Shown here: one piece after another, positions 303 to 30,114 of the stretch
Numbering within the stretch: the first letter of the stretch is position 1
How the letters are laid out: each line of letters opens with the position of its first letter
Assembly: GCF_024521635.1 (NCBI RefSeq)
Contig: NW_026250405.1
Span: 744,001-808,000 of the forward strand
Origin: Tricharina praecox
Taxonomy: Eukaryota
Direction: 5' to 3'
DNA length: 64,000 bases
Notes under the pieces: generated by a model
The model's database searches: none
The model's input: the letters and a program-made list of their open reading frames with translations, nothing else
Told to the model about the DNA's origin: nothing
Position numbers and translations under genes: made by a program

Positions 303-1047
303 GGATTCATGTCTCGTTTCAGCGACACACAATTTGTCTAGCTTTGCTGGATTTCAGTTTATTTCGTGGGGACCGAATCAACCGGTAGTGCGGCAGTGTC
401 TGCGCTGGGAGACGGCGTTGGAGGTTGGTGGGCGATGAGCACGAGCTGGTATATCCGGGGGCACCATGATAGGATGTGCCGTAGAAACCGTGCTGCTCAC
501 GGTCAACGTCAGGATGACTTTGAGAGGAGACGGTTGAGGAGAGCTAGCTAGAGGATTGAAGTACATCGGGCCAGTTTTCCCAAGAGACCCCGCCGGCAAT
601 AGCGAGCGTGCCACATTATAACCTGATCAGCGGCGGCGGTGGAAACATCGATCTGATACTGACCTAAGAAGGCACTGTAAAATCGATAGGTGCATGGATA
701 GAATGATATATGACGGCCTATACAATAAATACTCGTGTACCGGTGCTTGAGGAGGGAGCGGGTGAAGTGGACTCAGTGGACGTGTGATTTGAAACCTCGA
801 ATGGAATGGTGTCCAATGGGGAAAAGTACTTATGCCATTGAAATTTACATATTTTCTATCTAATGATATTGGAGGAAGAAACGCCAGCAACGGAAGTCTA
901 TGTAAGATATCAACGAGCACAATAGACCAGGGAACCAGCAGATGATGACCCAACAAAGCCAATGAAAATGAAAAGGAAAAAGAGAAAATGGTATATTGAC
1001 GAACTGGAAGAAAAAAAGAAAAAAAAGGTGAGGGGTTTTCCCGAGAT

Positions 1048-1089
1048 CACCACCTATTCATCAGGCTGGCGAAGTACGGACAGCGCTCC

Positions 1090-1136
<47 letters not shown>

Positions 1137-1351
1137 CCATTAATGATGGTAAACAGCAAGAGGTTCTTGAAGAAGCTGGTAAGGGAATTCTGGTCAGCTC
1201 TCCGGGAGACTGAGGATGATGGCGGGTGTGATTCTTACTCGGCTTCGAACTCCGGGCCTTTCATGGTCGGCCGCGGCTGCCGTGGCTGCCGCTTCTTTGA
1301 AATGTTGGATGACTACTTGGGAATCTTGGGAGCTTTCTCTGCGCGAGGCAT
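1048..1351 (-). pseudogene. BTB/POZ-domain pseudogene fragment (N-terminal part) in repeat copy A
   Basis: ATG 1351 MPRAEKAPKIPK*(TAG 1313-1315)..MKGPEFEA, intron 1238-1176 (GTAAGA..GCTGAC..CAG), then FFKNLLLFTIING-[poly-G]-ERCPYFASL, resembling the BTB N-terminal 'hk.lL...spyF..l' motif. The sequence then jumps directly into the shared 3' tail. Confidence 0.65.
1091..1135. repeat. Poly-C tract (45 nt)
   Basis: Directly visible homopolymer inside the BTB fragment of copy A. Confidence 0.95.
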
Positions 1352-4300
1352 CCTGACGGTGTGTTGGTCGAATGGAAGGTTTGTGGAGAAGAGATAGTGT
1401 GTGCGTAGGCTTGCGGAGGGAGAGAGATTGTCTGTGTGTGTAGATGAATGAGAAGTTGCGGTTCAATTCAACTTCTCGAGCCATAATCTCAGCTCTCAAC
1501 CTCCGGTTCCAACTCCTGACTGATGAACAAGCCGGTATCTTCCGTGATGAAAGAGTTTATGGGGTGCCGTTGACGACGCGGATGTCTATATATATGGAAT
1601 CAGCTCCACCAGCTTCTTGCCCTCTAGGCTCTGAAAGCAGTACCCAGATGTGCCAAAGGCAGCGTACCCAGGTGCCGCGGGCAAAACATTTGTACAAACC
1701 GATGTGCAATTCGTCGCAGCCGCGCCGCGTTGCTCAGTCGCCATCAGTTCTTCATACAGGGTCCGCTTTACGATTGACAATCGTAGCTACTGCCACAGGC
1801 TATGATACCTCCACTGTTCGGGACCACTCAATCCGGCTAGTGTGGCTATGATCCGACTACATAGCCACTCCTCGTAGGTATCGTATCTGATTCATATATC
1901 TATCCTGCATATCGTTCCTCTCATGGTGGTGGTAGACAGACGATGGACCCTGGAGGGCTTCAGCCAATAACCGATTCAGGCCTCTTCAGCAATAGGTAGT
2001 TAGCTATGATGGGAAAGAACAAAAAATTGCCGACGGCCTCTGGTCGCCCAGGAACACGGTTGGCAGAGGCTGCCGCACCAATCACCTACCTCATAATCTA
2101 CCGTAGAAGAGTATATACTGGCGTCATCCTTCTTTATAGTGGAGTAAGTTTCATTCTGGACGTCCGGCCGGCACATACCTCCTACCTACTAGTATGTTCT
2201 AGCCTAGAAATCGACCCGACGGCGGATCGCTACCGGTAGTCCAGCGGCCAGCCTTATCATCGGCCAGCCTTGCCACCGGTAGACCAGTCACTAAACCTGG
2301 AACCTTCTCCAGCCCACCACACGGCGCACGGGGGTGGGGGTCCATGGACAAATTACATTCAAACCGTTTGTCTCCGTGAACGTTCCTCTAACCAAAGCCA
2401 CCTCCAGCCGGCTGCCAGCTGCTAGCCCAGCCCAGTTTCAAGTTTCAAGTTTCCGATACCAGCTGGAGCCTGGTACTGCGATCCCCGCTGGTAGTAAGTA
2501 TGCATATGTTCCCATTCCCGTTGCTGCTTTCGTATCATGCGAGGGGAAGGGGGGCGGGTGATTAGTGATTGGTGCGCCCTACCTAGAGTATTGCGGGCTG
2601 TTCAAGGACGCTGAGTGGTTCCCGTGGTTCCGTGATCTCCGGATCCGTTATGTGGGATATGTACCTGATGTATGGACGGAGATTTATACACAGGGTTTTG
2701 AAATGATCGTTACGTATGGACTGGTACGTAGCTGAACTTCAACCTGTCGTAATGGTTGCCGGTGGAATACCGGTAGCGGGAACGAAACGGGAAACGGGAT
2801 TGCGTCTCAGTGATATTCTCGAATCTCGAGTGCACATTCTGGATGGAGAGAGGGAGGGATCTTCAATTTATTTTGTATGCAGTCTATCTAGACTATGGCA
2901 AATAGTCGCACTCTATTCTCGTCCACTCTGGCCAGCCGGGGTGGAGACCCCGCTACCGACCAGCACGAAGTGGCGCCGTGCACATTCTGGAGTTTTGGAG
3001 CTGCCCGTTAGGTGGTTGGTTACAGTACGAGTGAGCGAACACACCAGCACCGTCCGATCAGCGACAGGACTTCACTCGATCATATCATTGCGAAGGCGAC
3101 TCCCCAAGGCTGCCTTTGCCTTTGCCTTTGCCTCTGCCATTCCGGCGCGTCAGGCGTATGTAGGGGGGCTGGCATCGCATTAAAGTGCATTTCCACATTT
3201 CCGCACGTACGTCGTGGGTACGTAAATACTGCAGACACAGACGCAGAGGAAATCGAGGTTTCGAACTTTGATCCCCTTACTTTTGTAACTATGTGTCAAG
3301 ATTCCTCCGCCGGGGGCCACGCACGCAAGCAGGCAGGCAGGCAGGCAGGCAAGCGGATGCAAGACATAGGTATCTGCTCCCCTTGAATCCAGGATTTTAA
3401 CGCCTGCGAGATGTGCTATTGGTGGCCGGCGCCATCTATGAGGCGCAGTCGGAATCACGTGGGGACGTGTACACTCCGCGCGTATGGCTCAGGGGGTTGT
3501 TGATTTTTTTCTCCTCGTTCCACGGATGTGAAAGGTTGACGTTGGTCAATGCCGGTTGCGTCCATAATCTCCATTCGGACGGTCGGAGTTGGCGCGGCCG
3601 TGAAGGATTCTCTCCTCGCCCACAGAAGCCTCACCGCAAAGTATTCCCTCGTCGCCACAAAAGCCTCATCAGAGTGCAATTGGGACTTGCACTCTCTGCT
3701 CCGAATCTGCGCCGCAAGCAGCCATCGCCGCTGGCAGCCAGTTCCAGTATGCGCCGTAGACACGGCGTAGAGTGCGTACGGTAGTTGAATTGTAAAAAAC
3801 ACGCCATGCATATAGTACGTGCAGAAAAGGCGGCGGATCGATGCACGCCCCCGTCGCAATGCTGCTTGCAATACTGCTTGCAATGCATCGACGGCGATGA
3901 AACGCGGTTTGGCGAGCAGCGTCGTCGTGAATCGTCGCCTCGAGTCCGCGACATCCATAGTAGCGACGTCAGAACGAAGATCATGCCTGCCAAAAATAAG
4001 TCAATCGGAACTTGCAGTCTTGAAGACATGGACAGGGCGAGGACGAGGGCAACTTGCAAGGTGGGGAATCCATCGCCAAGAAGGTGCTAGAACGGCTGGC
4101 CTGTGCTTCCGGCTTCGGTGCCTAACGGTGTCGGGACTCGACGAGTCACGACGGCTTTTATTAGATGCCCGGTATCGAATAGCCGCCTGCCTTACTTGCG
4201 CCAGCCAACCAGACGCCCGTGTGGGGACCGAATCCGCACAACGCGTCCCAACCCGGCCACACGAAACCAACAGCTGCTCGCTGGCAGCTCCTGGCCTCAT

Positions 4301-5127
4301 CCCCATGCCCATCCCCCTCCTCATCCTCCAGGGCGAAACGCTGGAACGCGGACGGCAGACTGATGGGCGGTGTGATGTGATTCCTGCAGGTACAGACCCG
4401 GCCCATGCTGGGATCCATTGGCGGTTTCGCCGCCCTTTCTTCTCGCTCGACGTCTCGATGCTGGATGTTCCTCACCCCCTCGATTATTGGCCGCAGACGG
4501 GTGGCTGTATATATTGCTTAATCTCCGCTGTTTGCTGCATGTTTCCTTCCTCCTCCTCATAAGCCAGACATACCACCGCACTGTGCAGCGAAGTTCTTTT
4601 TTTCCTTTCCTTTCTTTTCCGTTTCCGTCTTGTTTTTTTCCTTGCCTTCTTTCTTTACGCACAATCGTTCTTTCAGCTCGGGAAGCTACAGACTTTTTCG
4701 TACACTCAGAGCCGGGCTCATTTCAACATTCCATTTTATTTCCTCCCCCAGTTGATGTGCATTTCCACATCGTCCATTCCTAAGCCATCACGAGAGATAC
4801 GCTCGCTCATACACACACATACCTGACGAAAGAAAAAGAGAAAGACACAAAACCCTTCCCCCCGCCGCCGCTCCCCACCAATACCATTCTTCTTCCTCTC
4901 CCTCCGCTGTGCAGGATCGCCAAAACACAATCGCTCTTCTTCTACTACTACCCAGACTCTCATTAACGTCTGTTTCTTCGTCTCCATCCCTAGTTCTGGT
5001 TCGATACCATCAACAACCAACACGCTACGCTCTATAATACCCGTTTTGATACCAGGCCCCGTTCGGTGTTTTCATATTCGACTCGCCCGCAAAAAATAAA
5101 AGTTCAATCCAAAACACACACAAAAAA

Positions 5128-5934
5128 ATGCATCACATCCACCTCTCAGACGTAAGTCACCATGTCCCCTTCAAGCCCTTGCACACACACCCGCTAACAC
5201 ACAAGTAGGCCGCACTGGCACTGTCCCGCATCCTCCACTTCCACCGCATCCACCACGGCTTCTTCGGCGGCTTTGCGATCCTGTCGACAACACAATCGCC
5301 CAGCCGGGAGACCAAAGACCTGGACGTGCTCGTGTCGGCAACCAAATCCACCATCACATCTCTGCTATCGCAGCGACACGGCTGGCTCGAGATCCCGCAG
5401 AACCGGGAAGACTACGTCGCATATTTCTACCGCAACCCGTACTCGAGCGGCTCCTCCGCCAGCAGCATCAGCAGCACGAGCACCGAGTCCGAACTCGAAG
5501 ACAAGCCCGCACCCATGGTTTTGGTGGAGATGTTCGTGGGCCACCAAGCGGAGCGGTTCCCCGTGAGCAAGAACTGCGTGCTGCGGGGGCGACACATGGG
5601 GACGAGCTACGTGCCGATCCTGAGCGAAGAGTACCTGTTCCGTGGAAAACTCAATGCCGCCGCCACCCGCGGGAAGAAGGGCGACGTCGATGATATCCTC
5701 TACCTCGTCGAGACGTATGCGGACGTCATAAAGGACCGCCTCGACGGCGTCGATAAGAAGGTCGTCAATGAGGCTGTCAGGAGACATCCTGAGCTTAGGC
5801 GCGCCCTGATGAAGGTCGGTATTCGCGCACCCAGAGCACCGCTCCAGTGGGGGCTGAAGAAGGAGAAGATCGTCTTCTCGGTGGTGCCCGCGAAGACGTG
5901 GGATGTTCACCGTGGGCTCGGGTGGCGCGAGTAG
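5128..5934 (+). CDS. Nucleotidyltransferase-fold protein, AbiEii/pol-beta-like; exons 5128-5151, 5209-5934 (~249 aa)
   Basis: Intron 5152-5208 (GTAAGT..GCTAAC..TAG) gives MHHIHLSDAALALSRILHFHRIHHGFFGGFAIL...SRETKDLDVLV...FRGKLNAAATRGKKGDVDDILYL. The GG, R.T.D.D and K....R....D..D motifs are typical of AbiEii-like NTases. Confidence 0.7.
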
Positions 5935-7093: not shown

Positions 7094-7849
7094 CTACAAC
7101 CGTGCCTTCCCCCTCCCCTTCTCCCAAAGCCCCCAATTCCCCCCCTCCTTCTCCTCCCTTAACAGCACCCTCACCCCCCCACCTTCCCCGTTCCTCCCAC
7201 CATCCTCTTTCCCTTTGCCCTCCCCACCCTCCCCTTCAATCAGCACCTCCTCACAATCCACCGCCGTCCCATTCTCCGCAACAACAACCACGAAATCCAC
7301 CCTCCCCCCAAGCACAACCATAGGCGCATGCCACGTGCCGGCGCTATACGTCACCGCCTGCCCTCTTTCCGCCCTGAACGCCCGCACCCCCTCGAGAACG
7401 GGCCAGCCATCGGCGGCTGTGGGCGCTACGATTACTACATAGGCCGCCGCCTCCGCCTCTGGGGTGTCGGAGGAGGCTGCGTCGGAGAAGGCTAAAGGAA
7501 TAAACGTCTGCGTGGTGCACGGATGGCGCTCGAGGATGCGGACGGCGAACTCGCCGGACGGCGGGAGTGCGCGTGGAGAGCACGAGAAGAGGTGGAGGTT
7601 GTGTGTTGCCTCTGGGGTGCTGGGGGTAGGTGGGGGGTAGGTGTGGACTATGGAAGAGATGTGGGGGTATTTTAGGGCTGTGCCTTGGTTCGCGTTTATT
7701 GCCGGGGGGAAAGAGGTGTTGGTGGGGGAGGTGCTGGCGCGAGGTGTCTCGATACACACGCCGAATGGCGCGAAGGCGGCGGGGGTGAAGGGCTCGAGAC
7801 GGAGCACGGGGAGCGACGGCGGCGCGGTGAGAGTTTTGAGGATTGCCAT
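7094..7849 (-). CDS. DAL3: Ureidoglycolate lyase/hydrolase
   Basis: Single-exon 251 aa ORF with EPFTPAAFAPFG, ANQGTALK, LERHPCTTQTFIP and GQAVTYSAGTWHAPM, characteristic of the ureidoglycolate lyase family. Confidence 0.9.
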   Translation of the reverse strand: MAILKTLTAPPSLPVLRLEPFTPAAFAPFGVCIETPRASTSPTNTSFPPAINANQGTALKYPHISSIVHTYPPPTPSTPEATHNLHLFSCSPRALPPSGEFAVRILERHPCTTQTFIPLAFSDAASSDTPEAEAAAYVVIVAPTAADGWPVLEGVRAFRAERGQAVTYSAGTWHAPMVVLGGRVDFVVVVAENGTAVDCEEVLIEGEGGEGKGKEDGGRNGEGGGVRVLLREEKEGGNWGLWEKGRGKARL

Positions 7850-7922
7850 TGCCTCTTGTTGTTTCTCGGTAGTGTTGCGCGTTGTTGTCTTTGTGCGTTG
7901 TGGTGTGGGGGAGAGGAGGAGA

Positions 7923-7976
7923 GGTGGTGGTGGTGGTGGTGGTGGTGGTGGTGGTGGTGGTGGTGGCGGCGGTGGT
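7923..7976. repeat. (GGT)n microsatellite upstream of DAL3
   Basis: Directly visible trinucleotide run. Confidence 0.9.
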
Positions 7977-8743: not shown

Positions 8744-11700
8744 TCAATACCTTCCCCCCGGCTTCAACGCCTTGAGATCAATATCACCGCCCTCGCCTTT
8801 GACCCACTTCCTCCAGGCCTCTTCATACGCGTCTTCCAGGTCGCTCACCCAGCGCTTAGTATTAAACAGCTCGCTGGTCCATCGGTTCGTGAACAGGACT
8901 TTCCGGATATCGCCCAGCTCGCCGGCATATTCCCCCTCGCCGCCGATGCGGTACGCCATTCCCGCCGCCAGCTCGATCGCACGGCGCTCATAGTCGTCTT
9001 CGCTTGTTGCCACCAAGCCGTTTGCGATGGCCCTCCCCTCGTCCGTTTGCGGCACTGCGGCTCGGAGAATACTCGCCGCGATGCGAGAGCACATCTTGTG
9101 TTTGTGCCGTGGCAGCGTCAGTAGAGGCGTGCCGCTCCAGAGGACGTCGGCGGCTGTGGTGTGCGCATTACATTCCGGCGTGTCCAGGAAGAGGTCGCAC
9201 ACCTGCGCACGCGAGATGTGCAGAGGTTTCGGCGCGACATCGGTGAATATGATTCGTGACGCAACCTCTTTGGATGCCCATGACTCGGCCAAGGAGAGAA
9301 GATTGGCTTCGCCGATGTCCGGAAAGCGAAGCAGCCATAACACGGCCTTCGGAACCGCCGCCAGAATACGCAACCAGGTCCGGAACGTTGTTGGCTCGAC
9401 CTACAACATATTAATACAATCCATACCGAGTGACAGGAATGGAGACTTACCTTGTACAGCTGGTTGAAGTTCCCCAGGATGATCCGATCATCCTCGAGCT
9501 GTGGAAAAATATCTTTCCTCATCTTCCACCGCCTCTTGACTTCATCATCCCAGCCAAGCCGTTGCAACTGCGAATCCGGAGCACTCTGTCGATGATCGCA
9601 ACAGAAAAACGTGTAGCGAGCGAATATAATATTCTCGGAGTATACCCAGTCGTTATCCGCGTCCTCGCTGATGCCCTGGATAGCATCGTCGACGTCCACG
9701 TTCCGCCTGCTCTTCCGCAGCATCCCGGGTGGTACAGCCGTCGTGTCGGCGTACAAGTAGTCGCACCATTCCGCGCCGAGTGTGCCCGCGAATCCCATGA
9801 ATCCCATTTGTATCGGCGCCGGCCTAGCAGCAAACACCTCGTTGCGGGCACCTCGTGTGAACCCGTTGAGATTGATCAGGATATGTATGCCGTCCTCCAC
9901 GATCTTTTGAACCAGGCGATCAGGTCCCCATGTGTGTGCGTCGTAAAACACGGGGGACTCGGCCTCGATCTGTTTCCGATGCTCGGAATTGTCGCTCACA
10001 GAAGTGGCATAGCAATACGCCTTGACACGGGTCTGGTCGTGCAGACCGAATACCGACTGCATGAGGTGAGCAAGAGGGTGGTTGTTGAAGTCCGAAGACA
10101 CATATCCCACACGTAGATACGGCGCTGGAGGCGCGGGCGGGGGGTAGATGTGTGGTGCCAGCCAGGCCGACCGTAATGTCGAGCAAGATATTCTGAGTCC
10201 GTTCCGCTCGGATATGAGCCTGACCTCCTTTGCCGATAGCGGACAGGTGAAAGTATGGAACGGCAGCACCGTCGGAGCACTCGGCGTGGTCAACGTCGGG
10301 GGAACCATTGGCCGGCGATATGCTGTGCGAGGCTTGTTGATGCCTTTCACGTACTTGTCCTGGTACCATCTCCACACGGCCTGCCGACTAGCCCGCTCGA
10401 TCAACCGGATGACCTTCGCGCCTTCATACGCTCGGCCAGCCCACCCTGCCACAATCCTTTGCAGCGACGTGTTCCTGTTATCATCCAGATACCCATGCTC
10501 GGCATATGCGATGTCCCTAACGAAGTGACTGAGCATGTCTCCAGGCAGAGAATTTTTCCCCCACGATTCTCCCTGGAGCAACTGCTTCTCGACAATCCCC
10601 ACAACTCTGTCCATCCACCCGCTGCTGACTGCTCCCACCGCCTTGGCGTCCCTCAACATTCCGCCGTCGTCGACATGCCACCTGTCCCTATTCCCTCCAT
10701 CCCTGACCACTCCGCCTCTTCCCTTCCAATCGCAAACACTATTGAGGGCGGTCGCCAGCCCACACACAGCCTCTGCAAAGTCCGGGTTTGCCTTGACGGC
10801 CCGACGGTAGTACTCAATGGCCTCCTTGATGCGTCCTTGATCCTTGACAGCGTTTGCAAGGTTTGCCAGAGCGATATCAAATGAAGGATCGCAAGCAACA
10901 GCTTGCTCGTACATCTTGATGGCTGTCGGTAGATGGTTGATGTCCTTGAGCAAGCTCCCCAAGTTGGTATACAGATGCGCGTGCCGATTATCCAGGTTGA
11001 GTCCATAATAGTAATACAGGAGAGCCAACCCGACACCATTGCTGTGTCCACCATGGGGGTTTTTACCTGGCAACACTGGGGCTGAAGAACCCTGTTGTAG
11101 ACTGGCGAGGAGGATGCCCACATTGTTGGCGGTCGAGGGGCTTGCGTGGAGCGAAAGCGAAAGATAGTAAAGAGCGAGAATGTCCTTAACATTAGCACCC
11201 GGCCGCCCAGCTGTTGCCCCACCTGACGACATCCCATCCTGGAAAATCTTCGCGAGTGACAGCAGTGAGTTACTGGTGGTCGAAATGGCCGCCTTCAACG
11301 CCGCAGTGTTGGAGATATCTCGCAGGCCCGGTAGGCTGCCATCGGGAGGGAAAACAAGCCTGGCGGTCTGTATCGCCTTATCCGGTGGTAATAACACGGG
11401 CGTTTGTGGCGGGTTAGGCGAAAGTTCGGATAGATTGACACGTTCGGTTGCTGCCTTGAGGACCACAAGGATCTTGTTGATGAGGGATTGAATGCCACCA
11501 CTCTGAATCCCAGCCGACAGAAGAACAGCGTCCTCGAACGCTTTGGCAGCACCAACGTTGTCGCCCAACGTGTAGAGCATATTCCCCTTGGCATGGATGA
11601 GAGCTATAATTCGACCATTGTCGGAACCGGGGATCATGAAACCGTTTGTGCAAGGAGCGGTCCTTGTGACCTCCTGCCGCTTACCACCAAAGATGTACTC

Positions 11701-13863
11701 ATGGTCCATATCTTCGTAGTCAAACTTCATGTCCGGAGCTACGGCAGCCACCGAACCGTCGCTGGAGCTGCTGCTCAAACTCAGGTTTCGTTCCGTCGGA
11801 TGGTCCGGCCTGCGAAGCGCCATCTCGACGTAATTTATGATTTCGACGGCGTCTTTTGCGCGATGGTCCCCGCACAGAAGCCCCACCAGGTGTTCGACCG
11901 CCTGGAAGAAACTGGGCTGTTTCTCAATGGCTCGCCGCCAATACCGTTCCGCCTCATCCTTCCGATAGAGGGAAAGTAAAGTAGCCGCGCAGTTCGACAA
12001 TGCCTCAACGTGTCTACTCGGATGGTCAGAACCCAAAAATTCGATACAGGATCGCACCAATAGAAAACCTACCCCTCGTCGACGTCCAACACACGGCGAT
12101 ACCACGCTAGCGCTCGATTCAAGTCGCCCAGACCCTAAACTCTAACGTTAGCAACAGCCGAGACCGGAAGGACGAGAAAGCCGCACATATGCTAAGCAGC
12201 CGGCCAGTAACATTCCATCAACCCAATTCCAGTCCGAATCGCCGCACATCTTCTCGATCGCCTCCGATGCTGCGACTGCTTGTGTTGAGGCACTTGAGAC
12301 ATTCACACCTCCGAGTGAAACCGGACTACTGCCAGAGCTATTCATCGCAAGTGGTGAGCTATTCGAAATCCCGTTAGACAATCTGCGTTCATGACCCGTG
12401 CGAGAGCAAGCGGCGGCATATTTTCTTGCCCCTGAAACATGGAACTGTTCGGCAGATCCCTTGATCTGGGCATTTCCGTGATGCGCTTGAAGAACATTAT
12501 GGTTCGAGAAAGGATATGCGCTGCCCATGGGGACGGAATGCGACGACGAAGTTCCAATGTTTGGATAACCGGCGTTGCCTCCGATGCTCGCCCGCAATCT
12601 CTTCCGTCGGTCGGTGCCATCGACATTGACTTGGTTAGTGTACCGCGGTGAGCTGACGCTTGACTGAATACGAGGCCTCGAAGAGCTTCTCAAGCCACTC
12701 AATCTCGGCGGCCGCGGATACATCCCGTTCTTTGCTACGGAGGCGGCCGGGTGTCCTTGATCGGCTTGGCGTTGTTGGGAATGGATGGAAGCTAACAGAT
12801 CCACATATGCCTTGTGCGCCCATGCCGCGACTTTCTCACGGCTCGGACCGGGTATGGTGTTACGTTGTGGCAGTCTTGTAGGAAAGTGATCCAGGGCAGC
12901 GGAGTGAAGGTGTGATTCGTGCGATAGTGGTGCAGGATAAAATCCCTGGGATGCCGAAACCGGGGCTGGCGAAAACTGATCCAACCAGGTGTTGGAGGAA
13001 GAATTCAAAATGCCAGCACTGCTGTCGTATTGCGCGTTGAGGTTCATGTTGTCCACCGCTTGCGGGAGTTGTGCCGTCGGGGTTGTCTGGCCATTTCCCC
13101 AGGCCGGCTGCTGCTGCTGACCATACCAAATCTGGTCGTGAGGAATATAGTTTCCCCCCATGATGAACGCATTCACCTCATCGCACGAGGCCGTAGGTGG
13201 TTGTATCGGGTTGTACATTGGCTGGAATCCTGAGAACTGACTGTTCATCCACAAAGAATCGGGAAAAGGCGGAACCGTCTGTTGCTGCTGCTGTTGCTGT
13301 AGGAGTAGCTGCCGCACATACGGATCCAGATTGTCGTCCAACGAAATCTGTCCATTGTGCTGTGACGGCCATTCGTTGGAGAACATACCCGCATTCCCGT
13401 TGCCCATATCCATCCCTGTTTGGTGTAGAGGATTCGAAGCCTGCCCCATCGTTTTGTCCGCCCAGTTCATCCCCTGACCCATCCCCTGGCGCATCCCCTG
13501 ACCTCCATGATTCCCAGGTTGAGACTCCTCCCCATGATATGGCACAAGAATCTGCTTGGTCGGGCGCGACACATAGTCCACCCCATCGTATGCTGCCGGT
13601 AACGTTCCGGAGGGCGTTTTCCGTCGGAGCATGTTTTCGTGTAACGAGTGCTGAGTCGGTACCAGTGATGAGGTGGAGTGATTTCGAAACAATGGTCGGT
13701 TCGAATGCGTAAGGCCCTGCCTATGTGGAATCTGTTGGTCAAGTGGATACGGCGAATTCCCGTATATTGGTGTATTGGGAAGGGAGTTGTAGATGAGCTG
13801 CGGTGCACCTGTCTGAACGGCCGGCAGCTCCTGCTGCTGCCTCAATGGATAAGGCATCATCAT
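8744..13863 (-). CDS. OGT: UDP-GlcNAc:protein O-GlcNAc transferase (GT41); exons 13863-12187, 12134-12073, 12013-9451, 9400-8744 (~1650 aa)
   Basis: TPR repeats (HAHLYTNLGSLLKD, FDIALANLANAVKD) and catalytic motifs [50 protein letters not shown]|VEP and DLFLDTPECNAHTTAADVLWSGTP. Three canonical introns restore one frame. Long Q/S-rich N-terminus; the start codon is less certain. Confidence 0.92.
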
Positions 13864-16798: not shown

Positions 16799-16827
16799 TC
16801 ATCATCATCATCATCATCATCATCATC
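16799..16827. repeat. (TCA)n microsatellite
   Basis: Directly visible. Confidence 0.85.
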
Positions 16828-17112: not shown

Positions 17113-17177
17113 AGAGCCCGCCAGAGCCCGCCAGAGCCCGCCAGAGCCCGCCAGAGCCCGCCAGAGCCCGCCAGAGC
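17113..17177. repeat. 10-bp minisatellite (CCAGAGCCCG)x5 plus partial copies
   Basis: Five perfect copies at 17121-17170 with partial flanking copies. Confidence 0.95.
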
Positions 17178-19876: not shown

Positions 19877-19948
19877 GGCCGCGTGGCCCAATGGCAAGGC
19901 GCTTGACTACGAATCAAGAGATTGCAGGTTCGATCCCTGCCGTGGTCA
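19877..19948 (+). tRNA. tRNA-Arg(ACG): tRNA-Arg(ACG), copy 2
   Basis: Identical 72-nt sequence to copy 1, followed by a T-rich Pol III terminator. Confidence 0.96.
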
Positions 19949-20784
19949 CTTCATTCTTTTTTTCCTCTTTTATCCTTCTTTTTGCGCGGCTGTAGGGAGG
20001 CGCTGGCGCCTGAGGTTACCAGTTAGTGCTGGTGTTGGTGATGGTTATGCGTTGTGCATAAATATGGTGTCCGGTTTGCTGTTATGCTTCAGGATGACGG
20101 AAATCGTCAACCGCCAACAGCACCAGTATCTATCGCTGAGACGAAGGTCTGATGAGGGTGGGATGAGACGAGCGAGGTGAACTGCCATCGAAAAGACTAC
20201 CATAAGATGCCGTCAACAAACTATGTGGGTCTAGATACATGTGCGTAGGACCAACAGAACTCAATTTACGAGAGTTGACAGTGCTTGACATACTGTTCAT
20301 ACTGTATCATACTTCCACTTCCCTCGAGCCTTTCGCTTGCGTCTTTGACGACTCCATCCCCTCCTCTCGCCGACAACAATCACAGCTCCGCCACTACTCC
20401 TTCGGGTTGTACCCGACGCATGTGGTACATCTCCACCGTTGACACTATGACAGGAACTTGGAAAGGACTATGGACATCGACAGCATCCCGCGACAGATAC
20501 CGGTATACAGTGCGTTTGCTCATCTGTTAGCGGCCGTCTCCATGGAGAGAAAGGTCGAAAGCCGGTGAGTTTCAACTTTCAAGCACCCAGACCGAGTCCT
20601 TATGGCTGGCTGGCTGGCGGTCCGACTTTCTGGATCACACGGAGCGTGCCGAGACTGATCCGTTTCATCTATGCCGAACCTACCCTTCCGCCGACCTGGT
20701 GACGGAGGCTGCCCGAGTAAATTGCGAGTTGAGTTGAGTCAGACTGTGCCACAGCTGTCACCGAGTGACAGGACACATATAACT

Positions 20785-20856
20785 GGCCGCGTGGCCCAAT
20801 GGCAAGGCGCTTGACTACGAATCAAGAGATTGCAGGTTCGATCCCTGCCGTGGTCA
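20785..20856 (+). tRNA. tRNA-Arg(ACG): tRNA-Arg(ACG), copy 3
   Basis: Identical 72-nt sequence. Shares the ACATATAACT leader and CTTCA trailer with copy 2, with T-runs downstream. Confidence 0.96.
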
Positions 20857-21056
20857 CTTCAATCTATTCTTTTGTTTTTCTTTTGTATCCCCGGGAAGGG
20901 CGGGTTTGAGTCTCGCAGTCTGCTGGCGGATCGGAAGATTCGTTTTGTTTGGTGGGACTGGTTCTTCTGTACCCATCGAGTGACAAGAACTACATATACG
21001 CATACATAGGGGTTCGTTCCTCAGGCGTGGGTTGCTCAAGGAAAGACATCTCTTTT

Positions 21057-22240
21057 TGATCATATGATGCATGCCGATACAATAAATACTCGTGTACCGG
21101 TGCTTGAAGAGGAAGTGGGTGAAGTAGACTCATTATATAGGCGCGAGATTGGAACCCTCGAATAGAATGGTGTTCGATGGGAAAAAGTACTCATGCCACC
21201 GACATTTGTATGTAAATTTTCTATCTATTTAATCATTCTTTTGGGCCGCAACAAAATACCAAATAGATATTGGAGGAAGAATTAGAAACGCCAACAATGG
21301 AAGTCATGTAGGTAAGATACTAACGAGCACAGTAGCCCAAGGAATCAGCAGATGAAATATGAACCAATAAAGTCAATGAAAAGGAAAATAACAAAATGAT
21401 ATATAGACGAACTATGGAACTGAAAGAGAAAAAAAAAGGTGAGGTGGTTTCCCTCGATCACCACCCATTTACCCATGTAGCCACAAAATCAGTATAACGC
21501 ACACCGGGGGTTTTCGTTTCAGCTCACTCGGCATCTAAGTCATCTTCACGAAGCATTTTCGCCTACCACAACAGAAGAGTGTGCGCCAACTCCCCAAACC
21601 TCTTGACGGTGCATTTCAACAATGCAGCCATGTTCATGGCGCAGTTCACCGTGAAAATGTCCCGGAGACTGGCCTTGCGGCTTGGCCACGCTTCTCCATC
21701 GGCGTACTCGTCTTCGGTCATCCCGTAGACCCAGGCCAACAGCGAAACAATCTCGTCCTCCCAATCAGCTCCCCAGGCATGGCGGCGAAGCGCTGAAGGT
21801 AGGTTCCTCGTTGCAGCGTCCTTGAGCTCGGCCACGCGCATCTTGTCCGCAAACATGGCTAGCTCCGCGTGCAACAGGAGCTGATTGGCGGCGTCTTGAG
21901 GAAACGTCTAGGTTCCGGTATATAGGAACCCCGCGAATGCCTCGAAGACTTCGCACGAGACGGGATCGCGACAGAATTCGCGGAGGCTTCCTCGCCATCC
22001 GAAAGTTTGGCTGCGTGAGGCATCGTGACGGTTTGTCGGTCGGATGTAAGGTTTGTGGAGAAGAGATAGTGTTTGTAGGCTTGCGGAGGGAGAGAGAGAT
22101 TGTGTGTGTGTGTTGGTTGGTGGAGAGAAAGAGAGAGAGAGAGGAAGAGAAAGAGAGAAGATAACGTGGTCCAGTAAAGGATCGGCGAAAAAGAAGATGA
22201 ATGAGAATTTGGGGTTCTATCCAACTTCAAAGAGCCATCT
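21057..22240 (-). mobile_element. Dispersed repeat family copy B, carrying the C-terminal part of the BTB/POZ gene
   Basis: 21073-21470 aligns with 718-1060, and 22020-22240 aligns with 1349-1483 and with copy C. The internal cargo differs. Confidence 0.7.
21524..22023 (-). pseudogene. BTB/POZ-domain pseudogene fragment (C-terminal part) in repeat copy B
   Basis: ATG 22023 is in the same leader context as copy A, then the frame shifts into DPVSCEVFEAFAGFLYTGT*(TAG 21908-21910)TFPQDAANQLLLHAELAMFADKMRVAELKDAA...EIVSLLAWVYGMT. This matches the fungal BTB 'F..FLYTG.Y...HA.l..fAdKy.i..Lk..A' pattern. Confidence 0.75.
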
Positions 22241-22487
22241 GGCAAGTTCTCCCCGACTTCTTTGAACCATACATCTTTGAGGCATGTACAAGGGCGAGTG
22301 ATAGATGAGCATCTGGAGTACTGACCGCAGCGATGGGAAAATTATACATCCTGTATATTGTGCGAGCGGGAGGTTTCCCATATGATTTTTCTGTATTCAT
22401 TCGGCACTACATAGCCCTCTTCTAACCCTTTGTATGTAGATATGATGCAGGTTCTATCTATTCTAGGTATATGTGCAAACCTCTCCA

Positions 22488-23839
22488 CTACTGGAAATCA
22501 GTGAGATCTCTCTTCATCCACCCGGACACACCCAAAACACCGCCCTTCTGCTCGGGACCCCTTTCGCCCGGATCTTCACACTCAACAGAATTATCCAGAC
22601 TCCACCTCCGAATCGGCAACACCCCCAAATCAGTGTGCCACCCAGCCTTCCACAACTCCAATCCCGCCCACGCAATCATGGCCGCATTGTCAGTGCAATA
22701 CTTCACTGGCGGACACACCAGCTGCACATGCTCGAATCCAGCCTGATCCAGATACCTCCTGATTAAGTATCTCAAGAAGCGGTTGCTCGCAACCCCACCA
22801 CTTATGACCAAACTCTTTATTCCCTCGGCCTGCGGTGACTTGAGCGTTGCCACGGCCCTATCAGCAACATGTTCGAACGCCATCATCATTGCCTCTCTCC
22901 CCAACTCCTTCGTCTCCTCCACTTCAATCGCTGGGTTTGCATCTATATACCTCTCGAGTGCGCTTCCTAATCCCGAAAACGAGAACGCATCCGGCCGTGG
23001 GTGCAACTGTAGTGGTGGAACCATCTTCCAACCCCCCCATCTTTCGTGCTTCGTTCTATTCTCCGCCTTTCTCTCCGTAGTCCCCGGCGGGGAGTAACGC
23101 CAATCCTCCTCTCCTCGTGGAAAACAAAACTCCTCTAGCACCTTGCCATAAGCCACGGCCTCACCCTGCATCTCCAGCACATCAGGCGGCAGTATGCGCC
23201 TGGCAACTTTATCCACCATATCCCCGACGGCGATATCTATACTCCCCGCGATGACGGTATGTTCCGTCAACGCGTGCGAGTGCAACAGCATCGTATGTCC
23301 GCCGCTCACCAGCAGCGTCAAGAACGGAAACTCCGCACCGCTTCCCTCTCCCAGCCGCTCGATCAACCGTGGCGTAAGCGCGTGCGCTAGCATGTGGTTA
23401 ACGCCGATCAGCGGCCGGCCCCAGGCCACGGCGAGTCCCTTCGCCATGTCCAAACCTACCGCCAGCGAGGAAACCATTCCGGGGCCGCGCGTGACGGCGA
23501 TCAGGTCCGGTTTGTCGACGCCGGCCGGGAGCGCGGATACGGCGCGTTGGACGAGCGCGGCGAGGTGCCGCCGGTGCGAGGTCAGAGAGAGAATCGGATG
23601 GATTCCGCCGGTGGCCCGGTTGGCTGACGTGATCGTCTCATGGAAGCAGAGACTGGCCTGTGTCGACGAATGGTGGGGTGTGTGTAGGATTGCCACGGAG
23701 GTGTCATCGCTTTGGGGAGGGTTAGCCGGTCAATCGTCGGTAAGAGAAGGGAGACCAACCAGGAGGATTCGATCGCAAGTGTCGTGAAACGCCGCCGGGA
23801 AAGGCATTGTGTCCCGCGGAGGGGAAGTCGGAGAAGCAT
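22488..23839 (-). CDS. QRI7: tRNA N6-adenosine threonylcarbamoyltransferase, mitochondrial type (Kae1/TsaD family); exons 23839-23760, 23709-22488
   Basis: Spliced LAIESSC|DDTSVA; IAVTRGPGM, GVNHMLAHAL, LLVSGGHT, DIAVGDMVDK, FSFSGL, SGGVASN and YCTDNAAMIAWAG. Arg-rich presequence-like N-terminus. Confidence 0.92.
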
Positions 23840-24071
23840 TGGGAGGGGCGCGTTAAACTAGGAATTCGACCTGCAGAAAATGTTTGCATCGGAGCCGCTG
23901 ACGTAGTTAGTACGGTCATGTATGGTCACTCGCGTAACACGACAGCAGAGCAGTTCTACAGGAACAAAGCCATCGTTTTGGTTCTGTTTTTGATCACCAC
24001 GCATGCGGCCGTTTGTAGAAAATGGTACTCACAGCTCAAGATCTATTGCCCCCTATTTCCAACGACTACCA

Positions 24072-24938
24072 CTACCACCACTTCTCGCAAAACACCCTCT
24101 CCTTCTGAACAGCTACGTCTCGCACCAGAGCGTCAACACAGAAGTCGGTGAACCCCTTCGGCCCACAGACAAACGCCAGGACCTTCTTGCCGTCCACTGC
24201 CCTCTCTAGATCTTTCACATTCAGTCTCCTCGTATTCACCTCCCATCCCTTCAAATCCGTCGTTTCTCCCACAACTTCACCGGTCTCGAACAGTTCCACA
24301 CTCTCCCTCCCACACGCCCGTTCAATCCTGTCCAGATACGCCCACTGTCCCTTTCTCCCACTCCATAGAAACTTCATCTCAACGTTTTCCCACTCCTTCG
24401 GCGCCTCCTTGCCCCTAACCCACGCTATCATCGACAGGAATGGATTGACGCCTACTCCGCCAGCCACAAAGACCACCCGTTCGACATCCTCCCGCCGTAC
24501 TCCAGCCGGCGGGAACACGAACTCGCCGCCGACCCGCACTTCAACCTCTTGTCTCAGTGTCTCCGCGGGCTCGCGCCATAGCCACGCCGCAGCGGTATTT
24601 TGCGGCGCGTGGCCGATTGACAGCTCAAACGAGGTGGATTCGCGTGAAGGAGGAGTGATGATCGTGAAGCCGCCTGGTTGTCGGATAGACGGCAGGTGCA
24701 GATCGATCCACTGGCCGGGCTTGAAAACGAGTGGAGACGCGAGTGCGAGGGTTATCTGACGCAGATGTGGAGTTGGCGTGTGGATGGCTGTTATCGTTGC
24801 CGGGAGGAGCGCTGGCGAACGTGCGTGTGTGGCCGTACGGACGGAATGGGGCCGATACGGTTCAAACGACGACGTGGACATTCTCAAGACCGACCGCAGG
24901 ATCGTTGGACTAAGGCGCTGGACTCGGCGTGGGTTCAT
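24072..24938 (-). CDS. FAD/NAD-binding oxidoreductase (ferredoxin-reductase-like, OXNAD1-like)
   Basis: FKPGQWIDL, PGGFTI, VRVGGEF, FVAGGVGVNPFLSM, FVCGP and C-terminal CEKWW. Confidence 0.85.
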   Translation of the reverse strand: MNPRRVQRLSPTILRSVLRMSTSSFEPYRPHSVRTATHARSPALLPATITAIHTPTPHLRQITLALASPLVFKPGQWIDLHLPSIRQPGGFTIITPPSRESTSFELSIGHAPQNTAAAWLWREPAETLRQEVEVRVGGEFVFPPAGVRREDVERVVFVAGGVGVNPFLSMIAWVRGKEAPKEWENVEMKFLWSGRKGQWAYLDRIERACGRESVELFETGEVVGETTDLKGWEVNTRRLNVKDLERAVDGKKVLAFVCGPKGFTDFCVDALVRDVAVQKERVFCEKWW

Positions 24939-27222
24939 GATAAGGTACCTCGCGTTTCGCTTGCATCCTTTGACACGGTCGCTGTGCAGTGTGCATCCAC
25001 AAACTACATAGGCGAGGTTATTCTATGTCCGATGACGATCATCCTGGCTGCATGGATTGCATCACAGTAACCTACATGCCTGGGTAGATACTACTCGTGC
25101 ATTCAAGCAGGAACCACAAATGTTGATCGGGATAAATCGGATATGGACTCTCAGCGCCAATTGACAGATGACTCGGATGACTGACGGCGGGGAAGATCAC
25201 CATCAGCGAAACAACCCAGAGTACTCACACGAGACATCTACATACATTCCCCACAGCTCTCAAGATAGGGCGCACTTGGGGATACGCCACCTTATCACCC
25301 TCCCCCCACTTAGTCGCCAGCTTTGGGGGCCGAATCGCCGGATCTCAAGGAACTTAACTTCGCTACAACAGAACATTCAAACTGGCGCGTATCCGTGTTT
25401 TATGTATCCCCATCCGCGGTCCAGCTCCTTGGAAATCCCACACCTTGGCGCCGTTTCGAATAGAAGCTTCTGACCGTTCCGTGCCACAAACGAAGGTGGG
25501 AATTTATTAGCGATCGCCCGGTTGTCGGAAAGCGACGTTAGTTACTTCTAGTCATGGGCCGGAGGTGACAGATTGAGTGCCCGAGTGCGCGCTTGTGAGG
25601 AATGCCATTCGGATTGTGTGCCGATAGGTTCGCAGCACTCGGGATATATCAATCGGCGACAGCTCCAGGGAAAAGCTGGGAAATGATACTCAACTTGCGA
25701 GAGGACGAAGAACCATCCATCGCACCTAGCTCTCGTGACGCGTCCCGTCGTCGGCGCCCCGCTTTTTGGATATCCAGCGTATATTTTGATAATGTGTCGT
25801 TGCTGATATCAGGTTTAATGCCAGCAGGCCAACAACCAACGAGCAGAGAGATAGGGTGCGATGGGGATCAAAGCTCGTACACGGAGATGTTTAGGCACAT
25901 ACTGTGAAGACAAAGAGCTATGTATATACGAGGCAGCAACATTCCGCACAATCAGCATACCTGCCGTCGTCGGTCCACGAGCTTACTGCACTGGTTTCAA
26001 TTAGCCTAGGTGTTGCAGGCCGCGTCAATAGTCATGTGAGAAGATCACGTTGAGCAGGTCCCTATTTTTGCCCTGTGCTGACAACGACAAGATCCATACG
26101 CTTGAAGCGGGGAAACACTTTCTTCAGAAGGGACTTCTTCCGAGGCTCCTTGACCTTCACTGTTCAGCCGTGGGACTTCGGTTCTAATTTTGGAGTAACA
26201 CAATATTCAGGTTTAACTATTCCGCATACCGAATGTCGAAAGCCGCGTGGCTCCATCGGGATGTGCTGCAGCTTCCTTCTCTGTCTACGGCCATCGGAAT
26301 TTCCTGGAAATCGCTTCCCATGTGTCCTGGTGCAGCTCTCGCTTCAGATCCGCCCCCTACCACCGCCGTATGTAGTTATCCCGATCACAGGTATTCGTGC
26401 CTGAGTGGGTAAACGGAGGTCCAGACGAAAAGGCCGCGGCGACGCAAACCGAGTACGGTAACAAGTGAACTCTCTGATAGGTCGAGTGACAAGCTGCTCC
26501 GGCGCACGGACTTGGCGGCTGTGGCTTTCGATCTCTTCTGTCGCTGGCGGTTTCAGTCCTCCTTTCGGGGATAGTTACGGCTCAGGAGGCGTAGCAAACA
26601 TGGCGCACGCGCCTAAGGGATGGATGGAGTCGTACCTGGCATAGAGTCGCACGATGAGGCGAGAACAGCACTTCTCTTCCCCTCAGGCTTCAGCGCGAGG
26701 ATAATTACCTGCGCAGTTGGAACTGTGGCGCTGGTCCACTGAGCAAAAAGCCGTTTGAAAACGGTCCAATTCGGATTTGTAACGGCGATCGGTATCCATC
26801 ATCCATCTCTGTCAACTTTATTATTTTCGGGCTGCGCAGTGCGGACACCATAACCCCTGTTGGTGGTCTCTCAGGCTCCTGAATCTGGGCACCTTCCTGG
26901 TCGGTAATACCCGTATACAACATGTGCAAGAACCGAACCGCTGTGGGGGGTGCGCCGCGCTGTAGGAGTCTGATGTCTATAGGGGGTCTTAATTAACTGC
27001 GTACATTGTTGGGTGTCAGTCTTTATTATCCCAGTGTTCCCACGCCCTTTTCCTTGTGTTTCCGTCAACCTGCCCTCGCCGCCTTACTCTACGATATCGC
27101 TGTTGCTGCCCCACTGCGTGTGCTGTTAACTATTCTGTGGCATCACTTCGACGGCCTTCGCTTGGATCATGCAGTGGACGTCGACTCGGCGACCATAACA
27201 CTGCCCCCCCCCCTCGTGGACG

Positions 27223-28646
27223 ATGATAGCCCGGAACTGTGGGAACCGTGGAGGATGTCGCGATATTGAGGAGCATGCGCATCGACGACGGCGACGGGAA
27301 GCAACAGCAAAACATTCATTTCGACCTATACGACACTCTTTAACGTCCACTCTTCGCCTTTATCTGGTGCTGGTGGTTTTGGCGACCTTTGTTCTGGGCG
27401 TCGTGGCAGGGGATGGGACGGGCGAGGCGGAAATTGGTCTCGGGCGGTGGAGAGATGCGGACACCCGGGCACATCTCAAAGTCGAACGGTTGGTTCGACG
27501 AGCAGATACCCTGCACCACACATCCGTCGATCTCCCGTTCTCGACGACGACCACCGTCACTACGACAACTACAACGACACCGACGAAGACGAGTACAGAC
27601 ATGAGTCTGAGTGGACGCACCAGCATCATCTCGACCACGACTACGGCTATCCCCACGACTACGGCTGGCTCCACAACCAAGGCTGACACCACGACCACTG
27701 AAATTTCCACTGCAGTTGTAACCGATGCCGCCGGTCCAACTGAGATTCCGGTACCTTTCGACAGTATCTCACTCACTCCACTCAATATGACGGCCGATTG
27801 CGCGGAATTCCTCACATATGTCCTTTCGGATCCCAATTTCCAGGGCTGCATACCGCTCTCCGGTCTCCTACGGGTATGTCCTCCCACCTCACGGCTTTTC
27901 GTGTCTTTCCCATAACTAAATCCTATAGGATTCTCTCGGTTTCTTCGACATCATGTCAAAGGGCGCTTTCGCCACAACCGCACTCATGGACCGAGTCTGC
28001 AACGTGGATCTCAATGCATGTACCGCGGTGATGGAAACCTATGGTGGCCAACTGCGCAAAGAGAGCTTTTGCAAAGACGATTTCAACAAGGGAAACCCGG
28101 TGGTTGTGAACGTCTTCACCGCACTGGTAGCGTACAGACCACTGTATTCAGCGGGCTGCCTGAAGGCTAAGGATGGGGACTACTGTTTTGTGGATGCTGT
28201 CACGAACACGTCGAGTCCCGAGGATCTGTTTATCTACTCGCTGCCGCTTGGGACCAGATTACCCGGTGGTGCCCGGCCAACGTGAGTTATCTCCGGATGA
28301 GGGAGTGAGGTGTAAACGGAGTCGTCAGTCACTGACGAAATGCAGATGCTCCGAGTGTCTAGCCGAAACGATGAAGATCTTTGGTGCATCGGCGGGAAAC
28401 ACAACCCAGCCGGTCAGCCAGACGTATATTCCGGCATCGGAACAGTTGAATATGGGTTCGTTGCCTCCATCTTACGCTCTAACTATCGATGCACCCAGCT
28501 GACAATGTGTAGCTTGCGGTCCGGGCTTCGCGAACACCTCGGTGATCACGGTGGACTCTGCGGCATCATCACGTTCTCCCCGAGACCATGTCGCCGGAGT
28601 CGCTGTGGCAGCAACAGCAGCGGCGGCGGCTTTGCTCTTTCTGTGA
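27223..28646 (+). CDS. Putative GPI-anchored/cell-surface protein with Thr-rich stalk and Cys-rich domain; exons 27223-27873, 27929-28281, 28346-28455, 28513-28646
   Basis: Hydrophobic signal segment, Thr-rich run, PVPFDS..CAEFL..FQGCIPLSGLL..C..AYRPLYSAGCLK..YCFVDA..PTCSECL..CGPGF and a hydrophobic C-terminal tail. Three GT-AG introns keep the frame. Start codon uncertain. Confidence 0.78.
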
Positions 28647-28829
28647 ACAGTGCTACGATGGGATACGATACTTACGCAGCGGGATTCTGGGGGACATTTG
28701 CTTCGACACACTCATTTTTTATGGACGGTTTGGAAGGCGTACTTGTTTTGGTGTATGGGTTTCTTTTTCTTCGTCCAAACCAGGTGGGCTTATAAAGAGC
28801 GGTAGTTGTAATCCTGCGAGATGGTAGAG

Positions 28830-28863
<34 letters not shown>

Positions 28864-28900
28864 GGGGAGATAGAGAAGAGTGCTGTAAATAAGAGACATG

Positions 28901-29031
28901 GAAGGGTTACATTCAGTGCCTAGGAAGCTTTACATACTTTCTACCGATTGAGTGGATCGAGTCATCTGGATCTCGGCCGGTATGTAGTACGTACCAGTGC
29001 ATAGGGCCCTCGTTGTGAACTTACATACAGG
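28901..29031 (+). repeat. Diverged direct repeat, left copy (pairs with 30115-30251)
   Basis: GAAGGG.TACATTCAGTGC..GAAGCTTTACA..GAGT.ATCTGGATCTCGGCCGGTA..CTCGT.GTG.ACT..TACATACAGG is shared by both copies. Confidence 0.85.
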
Positions 29032-29158
29032 ATAGATCTATATGGTGATCAGATAACATAGGAGGAGTGGCTAGTCGGATCATGGCCACACTAGCTGGAT
29101 TGGGTTGCATAGAACGTTGGATGTATCATGCAGAGAGCTCATTGAAGTTGAATAGAAC

Positions 29159-29252
29159 CTCAACTTCTCAATGTCTCAACTTCTCAATGTCTCAACTTCT
29201 CAATGTCTCAACTTCTCAATGTCTCAACTTCTCAACGTCTCAAATTCTCATC
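29159..29252. repeat. 16-bp tandem repeat (CTCAACTTCTCAATGT)x5 plus a partial copy
   Basis: Directly visible. It expands a motif seen only once in copies A and B. Confidence 0.93.
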
Positions 29253-29431
29253 CAATCTTCATTTTCGCCGATCCTTTGCCGCGATACATTTATCTTCTCT
29301 CTCTCTCTTCCTCCCTCCCTCTCTCTCTCCACCAACCGACACACAGACAATCTCTCTCTGGTCCTCCGCAAGCCTACGCACACACTCTACCTCTCTCTCC
29401 ACCAACCATACACTTCCAACACACCTTCAAG

Positions 29432-29760
29432 ATGTCTCGAGCAGAGAAAGCTCCCAAGATTCCCAAGCAGCCGTCCAATGCCTCAAAGAAGCGGTAGCCA
29501 CGGCAGCCACGGGCAACCATGAAAGGCCCAGAGTTCAAGGCCGAGTAAGAATCACACCCCGCCCTCATGCTCAGACTCGGCTAACCGGAATTCCCTTACC
29601 AGCGTCTTCAAGAACCCCGTGCTGTTTGCCATCAGTAATGGTCAGGGGTGTTATGAAGAAATCTACCATCTCCGTAGGGAGCTTCTCGTAGAGCGTTGCC
29701 CATACGTCGTCGACCTGCTGTCTCCCGGTGGTGAGGGCGCCTGCGCGACTTCGACGAGAC
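29432..29760 (+). pseudogene. BTB/POZ-domain pseudogene fragment (N-terminal part) in repeat copy C
   Basis: MSRAEKAPKIPKQPSNASKKR*(TAG 29495-29497)PRQPRATMKGPEFKA, intron 29545-29602, then DVFKNPVLFAISNGQGCYEEIYHLRRELLVERCPYVVDLL, followed by a jump to the shared 3' tail. Confidence 0.7.
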
Positions 29761-30114
29761 TTGGTCTACTGTTTTCATTGATATCTTACCATGTAGACTT
29801 CCATTGCTGGCGTTTTTTCCTCGATATCTGTTTGTTATTTTGTTGCGACCCATAAGAATGATTAGATAGAAAAAAATATGTAACTTTCATTAGCACAAGC
29901 ACGTTTTCCCCATCGGACACGATTCAATTCGAGGTTACCAACCTCATGCCTAATGAGAGTCTAGGTACTTCACCCGCTCCCTCCTCAAGCACAGGTATAG
30001 AGTACACGAGTATTCATTGTATCGGCCGCCATGTGTCATTCTCCCTCGTGCACCCACAGATTTTACCGTGAGTGTCGGATCGGTGTTTCCACCGCCGCCG
30101 CCAACTAGGTGTTA

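Follow-up and report, generated by a model that had tools for sequence, protein, structure and literature searches.

How one gene comes to lie in several broken pieces along a single contig is the question raised by a stretch of the Tricharina praecox genome (contig NW_026250405.1, here C28, positions 744001–808000; the window, 64,000 nucleotides in all), in an assembly of 38.4 Mb and 104 contigs. Three related segments of the window, designated copies A, B and C, each contain part of a BTB/POZ gene; three further copies, D, E and F, lie outside the window on the same contig. The first-pass annotation, made from the window, took the segments for a gene-carrying mobile cassette of a new class. 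Our analysis suggests another answer: the copies probably arose by short-range copying and pasting of DNA during replication or repair, without a transposase, and then became pseudogenes.

A local family of broken BTB/POZ genes

Self-BLAST related copies A (630–1910, minus strand), B (21057–22240, minus) and C (29028–30114, plus) to one another with E-values down to 1e-87, and the places and strands first assigned to them held. The leader, the ATG context and the tail are common to all three, and each has, as had been described, a different internal deletion; relative to D and E, which are full-length, these amount to about 555–558 nt in A, 258–271 nt in B and 644–652 nt in C. DNA and protein searches of the genome, which like the repeat counts given below are lower bounds, raised the number of copies bearing BTB sequence from the original three to six, every one of them in 222 kb of the contig (C28:689–911 kb) and five on the minus strand. 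The additional copies are E (689.1–690.5 kb), D (739.1–740.7 kb) and F (909.6–910.7 kb), and the extent of A is such that the other five are nested inside it. Three fragments lacking the gene were also found, on contigs C1, C9 and C24. Used as a genome query, the tail matched the six copies and 57 bp on C1, and nothing else. The protein specified by E exon 2 gave seven genome matches, all in five of the six copies, while PF00651 gave ten, eight of them at other loci where the E exon 2 search found no family match. An intact BTB member of the family, which the annotation had led us to look for, was not found in these searches; all six copies are broken, D and E being full-length yet damaged. 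A metagenome scan for relatives with their flanking DNA returned 152 matching stretches, none of which was confirmed. One candidate for a seventh copy, P0001 on a 959-nt contig, begins as D and ends as E and is most likely an assembly chimera.

Three results bear out the proposal that the copies derive, as pieces, from a single ancestral BTB/POZ gene. E exon 2, an open frame of 206 codons, scored 31.8 bits against PF00651 and the first frame of D exon 2 scored 27.8 bits (Pfam gathering cut-off, 20.5); the other three of the five queries (the second frame of D, the B fragment and the C fragment) gave no Pfam match. The Atlas matches were to ascomycete BTB clusters (scores 0.96–0.97). Among solved structures the family profile matched SPOP best (E=4e-10) and also showed likeness to the BTB domains of KLHL proteins. 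The ancestral product is best read as a BTB protein of about 240 amino acids specified by a two-exon gene and, judging from sequence, these putative proteins may have served as Cullin-3 ubiquitin-ligase adaptors. Adaptors of this sort bind Cul3 by means of the BTB domain and a 3-box and have a further part for the substrate. Close relatives are scarce, since a search of 5.8 billion proteins gave two matches, one from a D/E chimeric contig and one at 55%; a wider protein search gave 57, mostly at 25–36%. The subfamily is a narrow, lineage-restricted BTB family in birth-and-death decay. Literature searches, with most subscription journals outside their scope, yielded no paper on this BTB family or on tRNA neighbourhoods of the kind described below in these fungi, and BTB is not mentioned in PMC7898904.

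In copy A, read on the minus strand, exon 1 (1239–1351) specifies a basic, low-complexity N-terminus and is broken at codon 13 by a premature TAG, at a site shared with E. It is followed by a GT-AG intron of 63 nt kept in the DNA (1238–1176), by an exon 2 remnant with the start of the BTB domain (1062–1175), which ends at the deletion of about 555 nt, and by a 3' tail of 3' untranslated region (UTR) and downstream DNA (303–1061), the part to 630 being common to C and the part to 303 common to D only. Copy C (29293–30114, plus strand) comprises a CT-rich leader, an ATG at 29432, a TAG at 29495, a GT-AG intron (29545–29602), the BTB start, a deletion of about 650 nt at 29759/29760 with 3 nt of microhomology, and the tail. 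Exon 1 and exon 2 are in frame in A, C and D. Copy B (21057–22161, minus strand) has a CT leader and an ATG at 22023; its deletion took away the greater part of exon 1, together with the intron and the start of the BTB domain. What is left of exon 2, interrupted by TAGs at 21910 and 21565, runs through the latter half of the BTB domain and the helical C-terminus to the original stop at 21526–21524 and is followed by the tail. A and C had thus been correctly read as holding the N-terminal part and B the C-terminal part. D and E retain the whole coding region, so it is incidental that the deletions in A, B and C complement one another, a point to which the annotation gave weight.

In addition to the premature TAG codons of A, B and C, the lesions are a single extra base in exon 2 of D, an altered splice acceptor in E together with its exon 1 stop, and two deletions and an altered acceptor in F. 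Repeat-induced point mutation (RIP) was considered as the source of the TAG stops and rejected: C-to-T changes by context numbered 13/448 for CpA, 16/465 for CpT, 11/441 for CpC and 16/307 for CpG, and with no CpA bias there is no sign of RIP. The exon 2 remnant of A also contains a 45-nt C/G run (1091–1135) which, counted by eye, replaces 46 nt of coding sequence present in three other copies. This run is possibly an assembly artefact, if not a real G tract; the reads were cut at the repeat. Five further runs of C or G, 15–38 nt long, occur in the 154 kb examined.

The ratio of nonsynonymous to synonymous substitution rates (dN/dS) lies below 1, with its interval, in all five long pairs: E-D 0.25 (95% interval 0.16–0.41), E-B 0.33, E-F 0.34, D-B 0.42 and D-F 0.22. 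Such values point to copies that spent part of their history as selected genes. Values of dS range from 0.15 to 0.69 and make the events old.

The leader repeat and the ends of the copies

No long terminal repeat (LTR) had been recognized in these segments. The 5' part (the first 100–250 bp) of all six copies is nevertheless a solo-LTR remnant, matching a dispersed repeat (73–74 candidates, of which 40 were scored). The LTR family is about 245 bp long, occurs genome-wide and has TG...CA ends; among 23 full-length rows, which include two identical rows without a target match, eight have a perfect 5-bp target duplication and three more agree at 4 of 5 bases. In a tree of 51 LTR rows, whose bootstrap is not fully settled, the C9 and C24 fragments fall together with all six copies in a single group (support 98/94); the duplicate locus L067 was omitted from the tree, and unlinked multi-hit loci are represented by their best hit only. 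At C9 the motif TCTTC stands on either side of this LTR, at C24 to its left, and in five of the six copies to its right. The single group and the shared motif show one insertion into the leader, with the LTR-gene segment copied afterwards; and because TCTTC is the target duplication of the linked LTR, the BTB gene lies outside the LTR element. Two identical LTR pairs on different contigs (L044/L046 on C34/C19 and L048/L049 on C32/C18) are either recent segmental duplicates or redundant assembly.

Using nhmmer, the LTR of copy A was found in two pieces on the minus strand, the first (1804–1941) covering model positions 4–148 and the second (1443–1510) positions 143–209, with an insert of about 290 bp between them (1511–1803); the end of the LTR and the start of the CT tract have been deleted. 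Upstream of the LTR lies a leader (1945–2093, minus) common to the gene-less fragments at C24 and C1. Copy B retains model positions 141–245 (22162–22263, minus), followed by TCTTC, and copy C the portion from model position 34 (29028–29292, plus), with an internal 16-bp tandem expansion at 29159–29250.

The LTR in the BTB leader is a passenger and not the vehicle. That the gene was captured inside an LTR retrotransposon, in antisense and hence with its intron, and moved with that element is scarcely credible. The remnant does adjoin the CT-rich leader in five of the six copies, being split in the sixth, and the CT tract might be a polypurine tract seen on the complementary strand; against this, the 5-bp duplication belonging to the linked LTR itself, on both sides at C9, argues for a solo insertion, no second LTR was seen after any copy, and the tail is not a dispersed repeat. 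One LTR pair 9 kb apart on C28, a candidate parent element, encloses open reading frames (ORFs) that by eye resemble host genes; a parent element with gag/pol was not found, no reverse-transcriptase search having been made.

Sequencing runs point to transcription of the locus. No run is on record as RNA; X3 and X4, runs of two studies, are guessed to be so, and the reading relies on their intron-skipping contigs. These show no differences from A and lack the GT-AG intron at 1643–1586 within the insert. An X3 contig also skips the GT-AG intron at 2089–1984 in the leader, and a DNA contig of X1 runs through both. These contigs indicate that transcription of A comes from upstream of the LTR and continues into exon 1, the stop at codon 13 notwithstanding. 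Contig depth in X3 and X4 is also high between D and A (C28:742.7–743.4 kb; L108:4676–5404). An intact D in other strains was considered, as contigs of X2 and X3 lack the extra base, yet the X3 contig across the coding region has the letters of copy E at 37/37 listed sites; the X1 contig has the extra base at the frameshift of D, as in the assembly, of which that run may not be independent.

Transcription of the locus and the variable 5' ends would suit retrocopies or transductions of a transcript, truncated at the 5' end and made by a long interspersed nuclear element (LINE), and the genome does contain a repeat of about 135 bp, resembling a short interspersed nuclear element (SINE), with long target duplications. 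Such an origin is nonetheless highly improbable: the coding intron is kept in five of the six copies and was lost from B through its larger deletion, there is no poly-A at any of the six ends and no short target duplication was seen, D includes the downstream tRNA gene, and strong local clustering would not be expected. The 135-bp repeat (window 2845–2978; 144 candidates, 40 scored) has another copy upstream of D, ends in a CT tract, shows by eye target duplications of 10–14 bp in several copies and is SINE-like or the 3' end of a LINE.

The ends of the copies are ragged. On the LTR model the 5' ends fall at about five places: A at position 4 or further upstream, C at 34, D at 39, E at 63, and B and F at about 141; A retains the LTR start and at least 150 bp upstream of it in common with C24 and C1. 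The 3' ends fall at four, E and F ending at the same base, B further out, C further still, and A and D at a tRNA gene. The two outer points at which A and C part, taken by the annotation as the borders of a discrete unit, are simply where C ends. A is still homologous to D, which lies 3–5 kb before the window, down to the tRNA-Arg gene at 231–302 (C28 738712–739294 against 744231–744867, 72%) and to the C24 locus up to about 2091. In the C1 miniature (C1:154.6–154.7 kb; L109:4570–4745) about 100 bp of the upstream leader of A is joined directly to about 60 bp of the BTB tail, with neither LTR body nor gene. Just downstream of it lies a separate repeat of about 125 bp, present at five other genome sites.

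Scores for terminal inverted repeats (TIRs) were 12–16 in all six copies (null median 14, 95th percentile 19), which is background, as were those for other terminal repeats; this agrees, like the lack of poly-A, with what had first been noted. Flank scores for a short target duplication at the ends were at background in five of the six copies, and the termini are not shared. These figures bear on the annotation's idea, a non-autonomous DNA element, Helitron-like or of a new class, that hops locally and whose ends have become ragged through truncation and read-through. In its favour, a 14-nt hairpin with CTAG some 10 nt beyond it stands a few bases inside the end of copy C, a Helitron-like arrangement, and A has a degenerate version at the corresponding place; there are nested deletions and miniatures without the gene, and E and F have a common 3' end. 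We nevertheless regard such an element as decidedly unlikely. The motif is absent from the other four 3' ends, and, with boundaries being approximate, the hairpin with CTAG is found in one of the six copies (C) and the 5' TC start in none; the homology of A continues past the hairpin spot to the tRNA gene; the TIR scores are those of the null; and nine members were found, no more. A genome search with PF14214 (RepHel) gave no match, and the control genomes likewise gave none.

The annotation was accordingly right about the copies, their shared parts and the BTB domain, and wrong about the discrete unit, the missing LTR and the count of three. It did not note the premature TAG codons of A, B and C, the C/G run of A or the direct repeats around C. 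Of its interpretation, the origin from a BTB gene stands, and the new class of mobile cassette gives way before some five 5' ends and four 3' ends, confinement to 222 kb and background TIR scores. Local copies with ragged boundaries, the pattern that it had itself set against a cassette, are largely what was found.

Insertion signatures and the tRNA neighbourhood

Copy C lies between direct repeats of about 130 bp (left 28901–29031, right 30115–30251, both plus strand), the left of which overlaps the LTR start by about 4 nt, scored by eye as microhomology. The repeats are 74% identical over 145 columns (score 107; null 99th percentile 28) and have diverged about as much as C has from its sister copies. 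These flanks would suit a template switch whose return lay upstream of the point it had left. The start of copy D falls within the 5' half of a tRNA-Arg gene of the intron type, and its end in a complete tRNA-Arg gene without an intron. A T-arm base of the latter is common to only one of nine other local tRNAs, itself of the intron type. An insertion of D into a tRNA gene, the return being made through homology between tRNAs, would fit this arrangement, and so would the integration of a circle.

ARAGORN revealed three tRNA-Arg(ACG) genes near the copies in the window, at 231–302 (minus), the 3' limit of the segment shared by A and D, at 19877–19949 (plus), a member of the local cluster, and at 20785–20857 (plus), 200 bp from the 3' end of copy B and convergent with it. 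Ten of the 11 genome hits to tRNA-Arg(ACG) lie in 82 kb (C28:683–765 kb), on both strands, three with an intron and seven without, their bodies nearly identical and their flanks mostly unique. The tail ends less than 1 kb from a tRNA-Arg gene in 4/6 copies, against a background of 18%. A control, tRNA-Ala(CGC), has four of its seven hits in 90 kb of C72 and two within 5.5 kb on C9; since it clusters too, short-range multiplication is not specific to the BTB family.

Considered together, these features suggest the following history. The ancestral locus would have had the order spliced leader, solo LTR, CT-rich 5' UTR, two-exon BTB gene, 3' tail and tRNA-Arg. DNA pieces of 0.2–2 kb would have been copied into new sites, in either orientation and for the most part no more than about 200 kb away, by template switching or capture at a break and with no transposase, the position of A perhaps being that of the donor. 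Purifying selection would have acted for a time, and stops, frameshifts and independent internal deletions would have followed. Precedents exist in yeast: duplication breakpoints occur at tRNAs, LTRs and microsatellites (PMC2518615), templated insertions are copy-paste events with 0–20 nt of microhomology (PMC11724301), and several routes to copy-number variants (CNVs) operate at GAP1, which is flanked by LTRs and tRNAs (PMC11790251).

A tandem duplication array of the BTB gene with its tRNA-Arg, scattered over 80–220 kb by later inversions and insertions, would account for some of the same facts. A and D, separated by 5 kb, have the same orientation and one tRNA in common, five of the six copies are on the minus strand, and a 650-bp segment, at 67% identity, is present on both sides of copy E (L024:3100–3743 and 7124–7753); tRNA clusters formed by tandem duplication have been reported (PMC4981973). 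This explanation is unlikely, however, because the flanking duplication of C and the position of D inside a tRNA gene look like insertions, the tRNA flanks are mostly unique, 184 kb of C28 showed no reciprocal partners of the breakpoints, and the fragments on C1, C9 and C24 need another route.

Several observations weigh against short-range copying by repair or replication. A distant or intact copy could have escaped the genome searches, and the three fragments on C1, C9 and C24 mean that copying was not purely local. Microhomology at the internal deletions is 3 nt in two of five and 0–1 nt in the remainder, duplicated flanks are seen in one copy of the six, and at 15–25% divergence most junction detail has been lost. 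Some ends recur (E and F share their last 3' base, and B and F have about the same 5' start), and the 3' end of C is Helitron-like. A and D share one tRNA, and C and F lie 9 kb and 145 kb from a tRNA, so that the tRNA link is suggestive at most. In four short pairs, the three with C (0.6–0.7) and B-F (0.76), dN/dS is not distinguishable from 1.

On a larger scale, it may be conjectured that short-range copying without a transposase acts genome-wide and builds tRNA neighbourhoods of a single isoacceptor, tRNA genes being landing and return points for neighbouring protein genes, as at copy D, and the neighbourhoods nurseries for LTR-led ubiquitin-ligase adaptor genes; we hold this to be doubtful. 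Two tRNA families and the BTB family have multiplied within about 100–200 kb of their source, without simple tandem arrays. Were this true generally in the lineage, it would amount to a measurable mode of gene duplication, and the locality is a more interesting lead than the BTB family itself. The latter offers a small and well-preserved example of the birth and death of genes, and shows how a single window can make ragged duplicates resemble a bounded element.

Other features were observed near the copies. Minus-strand host genes at 9118–13863 and 22488–23477, the second ending about 250 bp upstream of copy B, specify what we take by eye to be O-GlcNAc-transferase-like and Kae1/Qri7-like proteins, respectively. 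An ORF about 4 kb from copy E (L024:259–1095) has a likeness, by eye, to a hAT-type transposase fragment. The gene at 35359–36372 (plus) specifies a secreted-looking protein of 337 amino acids with Lys/Tyr/Pro-rich tandem repeats of 21–120 bp period.

Comparison with known systems

Pack-MULEs and gene-capturing Helitrons carry gene fragments that contain introns, and their families show internal deletions. The hallmarks of Helitrons are a 5' TC start and a 3' hairpin with a CTRR end, those of Pack-MULEs TIRs and target duplications of 8–11 bp. The BTB copies resemble both in consisting of intron-containing gene pieces with internal deletions, and differ in having no TIRs, no 8–11-bp target duplications and no shared termini, in being very few, and in deriving from a whole gene under past purifying selection and not from captured fragments. 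The leader repeat, at about 245 bp with TG...CA ends and a 5-bp target duplication, is like other solo LTRs.

The ancestral protein resembles fungal BTB/POZ single-domain proteins of 200–290 amino acids, which consist of a BTB domain and a short helical region. Of its named relatives the closest are hypothetical proteins from Trichophaea hybrida (KAF8535971.1, KAF8541077.1 and KAF8537096.1; 31–36% identity, E-values 2e-14 to 5e-9). In gene structure the window is fungal, and these relatives by themselves would make a Pezizomycete likely. It is unlike those single-domain relatives in belonging to a narrow subfamily, the six copies of which found here are all broken; there is no MATH or Kelch domain. 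An expansion of BTB/POZ genes is described in mushroom-forming fungi (PMC10282164).

The comparison with yeast concerns microhomology/microsatellite-induced replication (MMIR; PMC2518615), templated insertions (PMC11724301) and GAP1 CNVs (PMC11790251), which are experimental events. The BTB copies, unlike these, are old and read purely from sequence, and they tend to lie tens or hundreds of kb from the donor. Like duplications made by repair in yeast, they have the character of DNA copy-paste with the donor kept, with ragged ends in or near LTRs, tRNA genes and microsatellites and no signature of a transposase.

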